A DNA stretch of 64,000 nt from Eledone cirrhosa (lineage: Eukaryota). Below the pieces are notes generated by a model. That model was not told the DNA's origin. It did not search any database and was given only the letters and a program-made list of their open reading frames with translations. The DNA lies in assembly GCA_964016885.1 (NCBI GenBank), contig OZ024742.1, forward strand, positions 229,648,001-229,712,000, in the 5' to 3' direction. The translations under genes and the position numbers were made by a program. Below are positions 33,705 to 38,725 of the stretch, in pieces. Every line of letters starts with the position of its first letter. Within the stretch, counting starts at the first letter, position 1.

Positions 33705-34020
33705 TTGTAATATAATGAAACGAAATTTCATTTCTCACTCTTAGTACGGCACTTACTTAAATGTAAGTATGTATGTATACGTACATACATATATGTATAC
33801 AGACGTACAGTAGCATGCATATATATATATATATATATATATATATATATATATATATATATATATACATACAGGTACACATATATATATGTACGTATCA
33901 GTTTAGCGGACGTTTATTATAACGGCCGCTTTGTCCGTTTGTAAACAAACGGACAGCCTGATTTATGCCGTACGGTGTTAAGGCAACCACGTCACCTTTT
34001 TGTTCGACACTGACACAGGA

Positions 34021-34063
34021 ACGATGTACTAGTTTCAAGCTTCTTAGCTATCATCAGCACCGT
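34021..34063 (-). ncRNA. Minimal type I hammerhead ribozyme (family A)
   Basis: Minus strand ACGGUG-CUGAUGA-UAGCU aaga AGCUU-GAAA-CUAG-UA-CAUCGU. Confidence 0.9.
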
Positions 34064-34137
34064 ATACCCTTCTGCCAGATGGTTGAACGTTCGAAAGTAT
34101 ATACTTTCCTTATGAAAATTAACGGCTGAGCAGCCTA

Positions 34138-34145
34138 ATTTGCAT
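34138..34145 (-). promoter_or_regulatory. Octamer motif ATGCAAAT, present in each complete family A and C monomer
   Basis: Exact octamer upstream of the HHR on the ribozyme strand; conserved at 7900 and 51847 despite divergence. Function is inferred. Confidence 0.5.
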
Positions 34146-34533
34146 ATCGAGTGAGTTCAGTCGGCCAGGCGTACCGAAAACGATAAGTTGTAATATAATG
34201 AAACGAAATTTCATTTTTCACTCTTAGTACGGTACTTACTTAAATGTAAGTATGTATGTATACGTACATACATATATATTTATAAAGACGTACAGTAGCA
34301 TGCATATATATATATATATATATATATATATATATATATATATATATATATATATATATATATATATATATATATATATACATACAGGTACACATATATA
34401 TATGTACGTATCAGTTTAGCGGACGTTTATTATAACGGCCGCTTTGTCCGTTTGTAAACAAACGGACAGCCTGATTTATGCCGTACGGTGTTAAGGCAAC
34501 CACGTCACCTTTTTGTTCGACACTGACACAGGA

Positions 34534-34576
34534 ACGATGTACTAGTTTCAAGCTTCTTAGCTAACATCAGCATCGT
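34534..34576 (-). ncRNA. Hammerhead ribozyme (family A), A9>U core mutant
   Basis: ACGAUG-CUGAUGU-UAGCU...AGCUU-GAAA-CUAG-UA-CAUCGU. Confidence 0.75.
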
Positions 34577-34905
34577 ATACCCTTCTGCCAGATGGTTGAA
34601 CGTTCGAAAGTATATACTTTCCTTATGAAAATTAACAGCTGAGCAGCCTAATTTGCATATCGAGTGAGTTCAGTCGGCCAGGCGTACCGAAAACGATAAA
34701 TTGTAATATAATGAAACGAAATTTCATTCCTCAATCTTAGTACGGCACTTACTTAAATGTAAGTATGTATGTATACGTACATACATATATGTATACAGAT
34801 GTACAGTAGCATGCATATATATATATATATATATATACAAGGTTTAGTAAATAATGAAAAAGTTTCAAGATAAATTTAAAAAAATTGACTTTACCTACTA
34901 TAGTT

Positions 34906-34989
34906 ACCTTTACCGATCGGTTTCGAATCCCAAAAATAAAACGGAGACCATACGGCCTTCGTTGCAAAGAGAGATTCTCGTCAGAAGGT
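34906..34989 (-). ncRNA. Type I hammerhead ribozyme (family B)
   Basis: ACCUU-CUGACGA-GAAUCUC...GGGAUUC-GAAA-CCGAUCGG-UA-AAGGU. Confidence 0.92.
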
Positions 34990-35388
34990 TCTTTTCATTC
35001 AAAGAATATAAAATTCCTGAATTTAAATCACAAACTAGCGCTATCAAAAACTGTTCCTGGGATGAGAGTGGATGATGTAGAACAGGTTTATCAAGGGCCG
35101 TAGCAAAGATAGAGGCAAAAGGAGGTAGGTCAAACTAGCCACCGCTGTTGCCAGCAGCAGTCGGAATGACCCGGTTTGTTCTCAACGTTAGTGGAGGTAG
35201 TAGTAATATGAAATACGTCCCTACACGCACAAGGCGCCAAGGTACGCATGTATTGTCCAACCAAGTGCCAATGTGGTTCAATGGCCGGTTAATAAATTAA
35301 CGAGCCAGAACAAATATAAACAAGGTTTAGTAAATAATGAAAAAGTTTCAAAATAAATTTTAAAAAATTGACTTTACCTACTATAGTT

Positions 35389-35472
35389 ACCTTTACCGAT
35401 CGGTTTCGAATCCCAAAAATAAAACGGAGACCATACGGCCTTCGTTGCAAAGAGAGATTCTCGTCAGAAGGT
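35389..35472 (-). ncRNA. Type I hammerhead ribozyme (family B)
   Basis: Same motif as 34906-34989, offset +483. Confidence 0.92.
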
Positions 35473-35871
35473 TCTTTTCATTCAAAGAATATAAAATTCC
35501 TGAATTTAAATCACAAACTAGCGCTATCAAAAACTGTTCCTGGGATGAGAGTGGATGATGTAGAACAGGTTTATCAAGGGCCGTAGCAAAGATAGAGGCA
35601 AAAGGAGGTAGGTCAAACTAGCCACCGCTGTTGCCAGCAGCAGTCGGAATGACCCGGTTTGTTCTCAACGTTAGTGGAGGTAGTAGTAATATGAAATACG
35701 TCCCTTCACGCACAAGGCGCCAAGGTACGCATGTATTGTCCAACCAAGTGCCAATGTGGTTCAATGGCGGGTTAATAAATTAACGAGCCAGAACAAATAT
35801 AAACAAGGTTTAGTAAATAATGAAAAAGTTTCAAAATAAATTTTAAAAAATTGACTTTACCTACTATAGTT

Positions 35872-35955
35872 ACCTTTACCGATCGGTTTCGAATCCCAAA
35901 AATAAAACGGAGACCATACGGCCTTCGTTGCAAAGAGAGATTCTCGTCAGAAGGT
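35872..35955 (-). ncRNA. Type I hammerhead ribozyme (family B)
   Basis: Same motif as 34906-34989, offset +966. Confidence 0.92.
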
Positions 35956-36363
35956 TCTTTTCATTCAAAGAATATAAAATTCCTGAATTTAAATCACAAA
36001 CTAGCGCTATCAAAAACTGTTCCTGGGATGAGAGTGGATGATGTAGAACAGGTTTATCAAGGGCCGTAGCAAAGATAGAGGCAAAAGGAGGTAGGTCAAA
36101 CTAGCCACCGCTGTTGCCAGCAGCAGTCGGAATGACCCGGTTTGTTCTCAACGTTAGTGGAGGTAGTAGTAATATGAAATACGTCCCTTCACGCACAAGG
36201 CGCCAAGGTACGCATGTATTGTCCAACCAAGTGCCAATGTGGTTCTTTGCTACGGCCCTTGATAAACCTGTTCTACATCATCCACTCTCATCCCAGGAAC
36301 AGTTTTTGATAGCGCTAGTTTGTGATTTAAATTCAGGAATTTTATATTCTTTGAATGAAAAGA

Positions 36364-36447
36364 ACCTTCTGACGAGAATCTCTCTTTGCAACGAAGGCCG
36401 TATGGTCTCCGTTTTATTTTTGGGATTCGAAACCGATCGGTAAAGGT
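36364..36447 (+). ncRNA. Type I hammerhead ribozyme (family B, inverted arm)
   Basis: acctt ctgacga gaatctc...gggattc gaaa ccgatcgg ta aaggt read directly on the plus strand. Confidence 0.92.
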
Positions 36448-36846
36448 AACTATAGTAGGTAAAGTCAATTTTTTAAAATTTATTTTGAAACTTTTTCATT
36501 ATTTACTAAACCTTGTTTATATTTGTTCTGGCTCGTTAATTTATTAACCCGCCATTGAACCACATTGGCACTTGGTTGGACAATACATGCGTACCTTGGC
36601 GCCTTGTGCGTGAAGAGACGTATTTCATATTACTATTACCTCCACTAACGTTGAGAACAAACCGGGTCATTCCGACTGCTGCTGGCAACAGCGGTGGCTA
36701 GTTTGACCTACCTCCTTTTGCCTCTATCTTTGCTACGGCCCTTGATAAACCTGTTCTACATCATCCACTCTCATCCCAGGAACAGTTTTTGATAGCGCTA
36801 GTTTGTGATTTAAATTCAGGAATTTTATACTCTTTGAATGAAAAGA

Positions 36847-36929
36847 ACCTTCTGACGAGAATCTCTCTTTGCAACGAAGGCCGTATGGTCTCCGTTTTAT
36901 TTTGGGATTCGAAACCGATCGGTAAAGGT
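36847..36929 (+). ncRNA. Type I hammerhead ribozyme (family B, inverted arm)
   Basis: Same motif, one T shorter in the stem II insert. Confidence 0.92.
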
Positions 36930-37287
36930 AACTATAGTAGGTAAAGTCAATTTTTTAAAATTTATTTTGAAACTTTTTCATTATTTACTAAACCTTGTTT
37001 ATATTTGTTCTGGCTCGTTAATTTATTAACCCGCCATTGAACCACATTGGCACTTGGTTGGACAATACATGCGTACCTTGGCGCCTTATGCCTGAAGGGA
37101 CGTATTTCATATTACATATATATATATATATATACATACAGGTACACATATATATATGTACGTATCAGTTTAGCGGACGTTTATTATAACGCCCGCTTTG
37201 TCCGTTTGTAAACAAGCGGACAGCCTGATTTATGCCGTACGGTGTTAAGGCAACTACGTCACCTTTTTGTTCAACGCTGACACAGGA

Positions 37288-37330
37288 ACGATGTACTAGT
37301 TTCAAGCTTCTTAGCTATCATCAGCACCGT
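37288..37330 (-). ncRNA. Minimal type I hammerhead ribozyme (family A)
   Basis: Same motif as 34021-34063. Confidence 0.9.
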
Positions 37331-37834
37331 ATACCCTTCTGCCAGATGGTTGAACTTTCGAAAGTATATACTTTCCTTATGAAAATTAACGGCTGAGCAG
37401 CCTAATTTGCATATCGAGTGAGTTCAGTCGGCCAGGCGTACCGAAAACGATAAGTTTTAATATAATGAAACGAAATTTCATTTCTCACTCTTAGTACGGC
37501 ACTTACTTAAATGTAAGTATGTATGAATACGTACATACATATATGTATACAGACGTACAGTAGCATGCATATATATATATATATATATATATATATATAT
37601 ATATATATATATATATATATATATATATATATATATATGTATATATATATATATATATATATATATATATATATATATATTCATACAGGTACACATATAT
37701 ATATGTACGTATCAGTTTAGCGGACGTTTATTATAACGCCCGCTTTGTCCGTTTGTAAACAAGCGGACAGCCTGATTTATGCCGTACGGTGTTAAGGTAA
37801 CTACGTCACCTTTTTGTTCAACACTGACACAGGA

Positions 37835-37877
37835 ACGATGTATTAGTTTCAAGCTACTTAGCTATCATCAGCACCGT
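37835..37877 (-). ncRNA. Hammerhead ribozyme (family A), stem III mutant
   Basis: Core intact; GAAACUAAUA replaces GAAACUAGUA. Confidence 0.75.
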
Positions 37878-38725
37878 ATACCCTTCTGCTAGATGGTTGA
37901 ACGTTCGAAAGTATATACTTTCCTTATGAAAATTAACGGCTGAGCACCCTAATTTGCATATCAAGTGAGTTCAGTCGGCCACGCGTACCGAAAACGATAA
38001 GTTGTAATATAATGAAACGAAATTTCATTTTTCACTCTTAGTACGGCACTTACTTAAATGTAAGTATGTATGTATACGTACATACATATATGTATACAGA
38101 CGTACAGTAGCATGCATATATATATATATATATATATATATATATATATATATACATACATACAGGTACACATATATATATGTACGTATCAGTTTAGCGG
38201 ACGTTTATTATAATATGATAATATATATCAAAGGTATACATTGAGTTAGAAACTCAAAATAGTCTCTTACAATTAAATAACTCAAAGAAAGAGATATTTC
38301 TGAGCCGTGCAACATAATTGAATATAAAAGAGAGATAAACACAGATATAAACATACATGTGTTCAAATTGTAAGGGACCAAGTTCGCTAGGTGCAAAAAT
38401 ACTAACTCTTAACAATATGGTTTGCCAGAATCAATTTAAAATAATAAATGAAGAAAAAGAAGTACAAACCATATTGGGCAACTGCCTGAACATCCAGACA
38501 GCTTTGGTAGCTGTTTCACAATTTTAGCGAAGGAAATTACCAATTATCTGCTCATCAGTGGGTGTAAAATTAGTAATCCCTTCACTTCTAAGTATCTCCA
38601 AAGAATTGGTCTCTTACGATTTGAACCCATATATGTTTATATCTGTGTTTATCTCTCTTTTATATTCAATTATATGTATACTAATATATATATATATATA
38701 TATATATATATATATATATATATAT

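Follow-up and report, generated by a model that had tools for sequence, protein, structure and literature searches.

A dispersed hammerhead retrozyme of Eledone cirrhosa with a candidate U6-type promoter element in each unit

The window analysed here is a stretch of 64,000 nucleotides (nt) from the 3.0-Gb genome of Eledone cirrhosa (contig OZ024742.1, positions 229,648,001 to 229,712,000 of the forward strand), and our subject is family A, a hammerhead ribozyme repeat with a candidate promoter element of host U6 type that lies between window positions 33705 and 38213. Four full units are found on the minus strand (starts at 38116, 37569, 34815 and 34304), besides two partial ones, with periods of 547, 511 and 485 bp where units adjoin; unit 4 (33868-34304, minus) is the reference for unit positions. 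Every full unit contains the octamer ATGCAAAT (window positions 37959, 37412, 34658 and 34145, minus), a 16-bp palindrome 37 nt further on, a 43-nt type I hammerhead and an internal (TA)n tract, the tracts being 18-112 nt long. The core amounts to 435 nt plus the (TA)n, with a G+C content of 0.30-0.35 and no long terminal repeat (LTR), and no open reading frame (ORF) of 100 codons was found within the units of the window. This composition is what the original prediction had described for each monomer, and it stands for all four units (periods 485-547 bp), except that the ribozyme cores are intact only in units 2 and 4. The same prediction took 33705-38212 for one continuous tandem, which is in fact interrupted between units 2 and 3: there, at 34838-37116, 2.3 kb of a different hammerhead family, family B (483-bp unit), have been inserted. 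The features of the interval are as follows.

38159-38213, minus: 5'-truncated partial unit of which the final ~55 nt are present; the insertion begins here
37682-38116, minus: unit 1; hammerhead at 37835-37877 with a change in stem III
37135-37569, minus: unit 2; intact hammerhead at 37288-37330, predicted cut after 37294
34838-37116, no strand: family B insertion nested in a family A (TA)n tract, foreign to family A
34381-34815, minus: unit 3; hammerhead at 34534-34576 with a change at the conserved A9
33868-34304, minus: unit 4; intact, the reference unit
33705-33819, minus: 3'-terminal partial unit; stops at unit position 117, followed by TA-rich flank
33705-33757, minus: "tail" between the two preferred 3' ends (positions 64 and 117-122); predicted start region of reverse transcription, by analogy to PMC11167929
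33717-33734, minus: short hairpin inside the tail
34135-34146 (also 34648-34659, 37402-37413 and 37949-37960), minus: 12-mer with the octamer, equal to the -77 element found in one of the host U6 genes
34125-34131, minus: weak match to the proximal element of host U1/U2/U5 genes, with TCAG 26 nt before the TATA box; scores below all host genes
34093-34108, minus: 16-bp palindrome, with a TATA box at its centre (34098-34103), 42 nt downstream of the octamer
34068-34073, minus: predicted transcription start (octamer +77 or TATA +30), placed by host gene geometry
34021-34063, minus: type I hammerhead of unit 4; predicted cut after 34027
34177-34180, minus: first T4 run of the sense strand, 407 nt past the predicted start of the upstream unit and just beyond the position-122 end
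34305-34380 (also 33820-33867, 34816-34837, 37117-37134, 37570-37681 and 38117-38154), no strand: internal (TA)n tracts

The family B insertion is a partial tandem plus inverted copies, with three ribozymes on the minus strand and two on the plus strand, and the octamer was not seen in the window copies of this family. Its hammerhead has a long stem II, and an older family B copy lies near 14.5-14.8 kb of the window. We also considered the (TA)n of family A as a mere target between separate insertions and rejected this, because the tract lies inside the unit and is followed by a fixed partial unit.

The hammerhead of unit 4 has a 6-bp stem I with a bulged extension, a 4-bp stem II over a U-U mismatch and a palindromic stem III. 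The latter is the form that works as a dimer (PMC4209133), and an axolotl motif likewise has a U-U mismatch below stem II (PMC7229834). The hammerhead is recognisable in all four window units, and its core is intact in 100 of 109 young family A copies, copies from overlapping loci being counted. Since Rfam gave no match at gathering score anywhere in the window, the ribozyme call rests on the core motifs and on stem covariation: when 11 ribozymes from five families are compared, 63 of 66 stem I positions are paired and each position shows between two and five types of pair, and stem III is palindromic in families A, C and most of D. For a circle running from cut to cut, with the TA tract trimmed, the predicted fold is much more stable than those of 40 shuffles (z -6.2); local folds of the ribozyme and octamer regions, computed for family A alone, are not significant (z -0.8 to -1.5). 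The family A hammerhead is a predicted self-cleaving ribozyme, and a unit-length circle is likewise a prediction.

Rather than a local satellite, family A is a dispersed family. Full-length matches that are 98-100% identical occur on many contigs, among 40 scored of 3393 first-look candidates, and a copy was present in 5 of 40 evenly spaced 10-kb samples from contigs 1-5. The ends of the copies were analysed in a sample biased to long copies, with 62 non-redundant 3' alignment ends and 50 5' starts. Fourteen of the 62 3' ends fall at position 64 and another 14 at position 122, 58 nt apart, and 39 fall within 60-69 or 112-123; TA-rich DNA adjoins 28 of these 39 clustered ends versus 7 of the 23 others. 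The 5' starts are scattered from unit position 16 to 383, and these 50 starts show no pile at the predicted transcription start (~232) or at the cut (279), for which reason copying from start-to-T4 transcripts or from linear cut monomers was rejected. Because copies cross the cut site and lack a 5' pile at cut or start, they were probably templated by a circle or by a multimer left uncut.

The multimers bear on the same question. At locus L183, three inverted and five direct units are bounded by a position-64 end on one side and a position-122 end on the other, and its eight units do not differ at any site; between-unit differences amount to 0-3 sites at L226 (six units), 0-1 at L227 (three units) and 0 at L228 (two units), and different loci differ at 7 sites or more. 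Near-identical units were thus found in four of the five multimers examined, the fifth, L184, being mixed. Such alikeness can also come from local amplification after insertion, and it is one of the points that an ordinary satellite would account for, amplified at the DNA level by unequal crossover or rolling-circle DNA with the ribozyme as an inherited passenger. Family A arrays range from 2 to 40 units, and a satellite is just what is seen at C11:6.088-6.108 Mb (L206-L207), where a family A subfamily (90% identical) fills a 20-kb stretch with 40 or more units arranged head to tail; this array is a retrozyme turned satellite. As the main route, however, DNA-level amplification appears highly improbable and is largely refuted by the end pattern: short insertions lie dispersed by the thousand, their 3' ends are fixed and lead into (TA)n, their 5' ends are random, and inverted arms occur. 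The stem covariation across families also speaks against it; it may explain the long arrays only. The cluster on C11, with one motif variant at 3.6-kb spacing, had also been tried as an autonomous tandem and was rejected, being a plain 40-unit array without an ORF.

Penelope-like elements are known for partial tandems, inverted 5'-truncated copies and a bias to microsatellites (PMC8557442), and for a lizard element two internal starts of reverse transcription and a "tail" were shown in vitro (PMC11167929). With this likeness, we hold with high confidence that family A is a dispersed, ORF-less retrozyme mobilised by Penelope-type machinery, a reading that the original prediction had missed. Penelope-type fragments lie near L100, L112, L186, L200 and L225-L227, and no Penelope-type coding sequence was contiguous with family A units in the loci read; nor was the octamer found in 14 stretches downstream of Penelope-type ORF fragments. 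A coding element at 46.2-51.3 kb of the window was rejected as the helper, for it has a different ribozyme and no octamer. This broken, Penelope-like coding element (45744-51300) shows an inverted arrangement, has its own, different hammerhead after the ORF and is abundant in the genome sample; a GIY-YIG fragment is found at 15678-16154.

The second part of the argument concerns the octamer. Host small nuclear RNA (snRNA) loci were read at L031-L040, L061-L076, L094, L098, L099 and L214-L221. All five distinct host promoters of the class transcribed by RNA polymerase III (Pol III), that is, three U6 promoter types, U6atac and MRP, carry TATG(C/G)(A/T)AAT(T/G)AG at -76 to -78 and a TATA box at -30, and the 12-mer of family A is identical at 12 of 12 positions to the element of one host U6 gene. 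With a matrix made from these five genes family A reaches 19.0 bits, against 13.1-18.9 for the host genes in leave-one-out scoring, and none of ~100,000 background sites scored as high. When the unit was shuffled 20,000 times with dinucleotides preserved, 7 shuffles contained the 12-mer and none contained it with a TATA box at 40-48 nt, so that chance is excluded. Host-like geometry would place the start of family A transcripts just ahead of stem I.

The conservation of the octamer, on which the original prediction was staked, points in the same direction. Among 23 diverged copies the 12-mer ranks first of 272 windows (conservation 0.99 versus a median of 0.72), although these copies form two related groups (8 old A, 15 C) and must be discounted as 23 independent tests. 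An old family A subfamily copy at 7676-8237 of the window (plus), 80% identical, has kept the 12-mer intact with a changed ribozyme core. In X7, a DNA-like run from another organism, contigs of 80% likeness or more concentrate on the ribozyme and on the octamer block, two islands with a summed depth of about 1e5, and barely reach the other half of the unit (at most 15 over 33895-33985); four further runs (X6, X9, X11 and X13), in which 5, 4, 0 and 2 contigs matched at low, flat depth, were uninformative, and no contig of X5 matched. Runs X8 and X4, of unrecorded kind, were left aside as evidence on expression. Because the 12-mer is best conserved and matches the host element of the Pol III snRNA class, a unit that combines promoter and ribozyme, as originally proposed, is a fair hypothesis.

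The motif is widespread in ribozyme repeats of this genome. All five matches to the 12-mer in a 400-kb systematic sample lie inside such repeats; modules with the short spacing number 26,455 versus 6 in the control, the first 100 matches being A, C and family L, and modules with the host spacing 265 versus 3, mostly old family D. The old A subfamily and family C are homologous to family A across the unit. Family C (window 51495-52553) is a young 466-bp homologue, about 62% identical to A, with head-to-head arrays, the same 12-mer and T5 runs near both end positions. In a family C array at C3:181.27 Mb variants recur every 3-4 units, which hints at a multimer template. Family D (L102-L127, L178-L180) is an old 357-bp ribozyme repeat with an octamer-TATA spacing of 47, equal to that of the host; several copies have G as the predicted +1 base, and stem I is immediately followed by a run of T. 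To judge by its sequence, the repeat could pass for a complete Pol III mini-gene whose product would be an 80-nt ribozyme; its T run followed by CAG also resembles a 3' splice site. Family F (L187-L205, L133:3150-3450) was first met when searching by structure only; as in A, its octamer precedes the core by 88 nt, and three tandem octamer-plus-ATCAG modules stand ahead of the ribozyme. Families H-K were found with a pattern containing the motif.

Some further repeats and loci were met in these searches. Another hammerhead family, without the octamer, forms eleven 310-bp units at L154:250-3400, and another compact hammerhead motif forms an inverted pair in the window (40331-40359, minus, and 43282-43310, plus), about 3 kb apart. 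A 122-bp CA-rich minisatellite of 15 copies occupies 54664-56528 of the window. Three loci (L170, L171 and L172, about position 440-520) have the 12-mer and TATA box at host spacing with an upstream AT-rich motif, and neither a ribozyme nor an Rfam match; they are candidates for Pol III genes still to be annotated, or else decayed repeats. For 13 loci that hold the U6-type module, Rfam returned TA-repeat artefacts only.

The original prediction had modelled the promoter on newt satellite 2, and a promoter of that kind, read by RNA polymerase II (Pol II), has to be weighed. It would consist of a U1/U2-type proximal sequence element (PSE) 26 nt before an AT-rich box, with the octamer as an enhancer for a POU factor. 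The host Pol II-class layout has AATTA near -89, TCAGT near -57 and AT-rich boxes at -30, and TCAG occurs at -55 to -58 in 14 of the 17 U1/U2/U5 loci, which is the place of the family A TCAG relative to its TATA box. Related lineages reach the low host range with the Pol II matrix (C11 subfamily 8.3, F 7.0 and I 6.1 bits; sister lineages 5.0-8.3), Pol II would cross T runs and can be recruited by type 3 promoters, and the newt repeat is a precedent, as cited below. Young family A, however, scores 1.6 bits and family C -4.9 with the PSE matrix, under all host Pol II genes (5.5-16.0), the matches of F-K were partly selected by the search pattern, and no octamer-like motif lies within 300 nt of any of the 17 host U1/U2/U5 loci. 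The octamer as the distal element of host U1/U2 genes was likewise rejected: the host distal motif, found near -260 in U1, some U2 and U6 genes, is a different sequence, and it was absent upstream of U6atac and MRP under the pattern used. The RNase P promoter has a Pol II-type (U1-type) motif in place of the octamer element. We consider the Pol II snRNA-type promoter doubtful, and its newt-like U1/U2 version finds little backing in the host genes.

Several observations weigh against a U6-type promoter and its place in the proposed cycle. The octamer-to-TATA spacing of family A is 42 nt versus 46-48 in host genes, 4-6 nt short and thus beyond the tolerance of human U6, which accepts a change of only -2/+3 nt (PMC11696126). 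The host distal element at about -260 is absent from the family A unit sequence. T4 runs at +407 and +469 would have to be passed by Pol III, and T5 runs in C and T5-T9 runs in D right after the ribozyme should stop it before the full unit. Of the 23 host U6 loci read, 7 have the element and 16 do not, as is the case for 3 of 4 U6atac loci; all of these are presumed pseudogenes, a treatment that for the 16 U6 loci is partly circular. Families D and H-L were found by using the motif itself and are not independent support. At L184 (eight units, 2-11 differences) and among the window units (12-19 differences) the copies are at odds with a single template. Finally, no autonomous element sharing the ends or promoter of family A was found with 7 query fragments in under 1.2 Mb.

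Part of this evidence is shared by another explanation, in which the same Penelope-mobilised retrozyme owes its RNA to host transcripts reading through its tens of thousands of copies, and its octamer block is an RNA structure, a protein site on the circular RNA or a relic of a D-like ancestor. It would account for the short spacing and the missing distal element, and in families A and C the octamer is the 5' arm of a predicted hairpin (z -4.8 in C), with a compensatory change involving the octamer in the hairpin of family L. In addition, the octamer lies upstream in only 1 of 19 ribozyme sites inspected in the sample; since the other 18 are without it, it is not needed for the spread of such elements, and many ribozyme families in this genome have spread without the motif. 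Against this reading, it is the partner arm of the hairpin that varies, with mismatches in young A, C and L, and the octamer arm does not; families D and F retain the octamer without a hairpin partner, F having even tripled the module, and the motif is the host's own U6 element with a TATA box downstream in the right orientation. A purely structural or relic role strikes us as unlikely.

Taken together, the octamer and TATA box of family A probably form a working internal promoter, as far as the sequence comparisons go, and a Pol III (U6) type is the likelier origin of this upstream element. As to the polymerase that now reads it, Pol III and Pol II are about equally likely, given the short spacing and the T runs that a long transcript would have to cross.

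On balance, we favour a model in which family A is a high-copy, protein-free retrozyme copied into (TA)n by a Penelope-like enzyme, with an snRNA-type promoter in each unit. The 12-mer and TATA box would start transcription a few bases ahead of the ribozyme, and read-through into the next unit would yield a multimer RNA. Its ribozymes may pair as dimers via the palindromic stem III and release a unit-length RNA that holds the promoter of the next unit and could be ligated to a circle. A Penelope-type endonuclease/reverse transcriptase would then nick a (TA)n tract and begin copying at internal positions 64 or 122, and copying round the circle or along an uncut multimer would give partial tandems with inverted arms. 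The tandem or circular form would explain how an upstream promoter persists when copying goes through RNA. From transcription to circle to insertion, this sequence of steps is inferred.

A wider view, which we put forward more tentatively as a possibility somewhat short of even, is that animal retrozymes of one whole clade, comprising A, C, D, F, L and more diverged relatives, captured an external promoter of the host U6 class and kept it through ribozyme cutting and the tandem or circular form, as a self-transcribing circular-RNA retroposon. Its more than 26,000 modules would then outnumber host U6-class genes by orders of magnitude, and the internal (TA)n would supply landing sites for the family itself and its relatives.

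The retrozyme class itself is already known, and what appears new here, judged from the DNA, is a U6-type element within a retrozyme unit. The analysis addresses how animal retrozymes are transcribed and which enzyme inserts them, and family A gives predictions at base level for the start site, the promoter motif, the two starts of reverse transcription and the target. If the promoter works, it shows a mobile RNA carrying an upstream promoter of the sort that ordinary short interspersed elements (SINEs) lose. A host function for family A is not indicated by any result here. As a by-product, the layout of the host U6 promoter has been defined, which is useful for the expression of guide RNA in Eledone cirrhosa.

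Among known systems, the closest likeness is to the non-LTR retrozymes of metazoans (coral, mussel and axolotl), which, like family A, are short, ORF-less, low-GC tandem units with a type I hammerhead, ranging from dimers to long arrays (Cervera & de la Pena 2020, PMC7229834; bioRxiv 10.64898/2026.07.22.740005). The axolotl motifs also resemble family A in their stem III, which is weak and palindromic, and in the U-U mismatch below stem II. Its unit is longer (485-547 bp with the internal (TA)n, and a 435-nt core versus the 150-450 bp reported), and two fixed 3' ends, inverted arms and targeting to (TA)n are visible in it; circular RNA and cleavage were shown for the former elements and are predictions for family A. 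Non-LTR retrozymes have been proposed to be non-autonomous derivatives of Penelope, with their mechanisms of transcription and insertion said to remain to be elucidated (Li, Clavereau & Pollet 2026, bioRxiv 10.64898/2026.07.22.740005). An internal motif of a host-type promoter is not described in the portions of that preprint and of PMC7229834 drawn on here, and no report of a U6-type promoter in a retrozyme was found in the literature covered, although an earlier description may exist.

With Penelope-like elements and their pseudo-LTRs (PMC4209133, PMC8557442, PMC11167929), family A has in common the partial tandems, an inverted 5'-truncated copy, an optional tail between two starts of reverse transcription, the microsatellite bias and a dimer-type hammerhead; it differs in having no ORF and in a tail of 58 nt versus the 30-40 bp reported.

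Two hammerhead repeats with promoters of their own complete the comparison. The promoter of newt satellite 2 is said to use an octamer, and that of schistosome Sm-alpha is SINE-like (tRNA-type) and not of the upstream U6 type. According to PMC2220036 and PMC6765202, which cite Coats, Zhang and Epstein (1994) for the newt and Ferbeyre and colleagues (1998) for the schistosome, newt satellite 2 has an internal snRNA-type promoter and is transcribed by Pol II, and Sm-alpha has an internal Pol III promoter. The element of family A, in contrast to that of the newt, matches host Pol III-class genes and sits proximally; it can be likened to Sm-alpha in that its promoter would be internal and kept only through tandem copies. 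A working promoter in family A would add a third type to those of hammerhead repeats, beside the Pol II snRNA-type promoter of the newt and the internal Pol III promoter of the schistosome.

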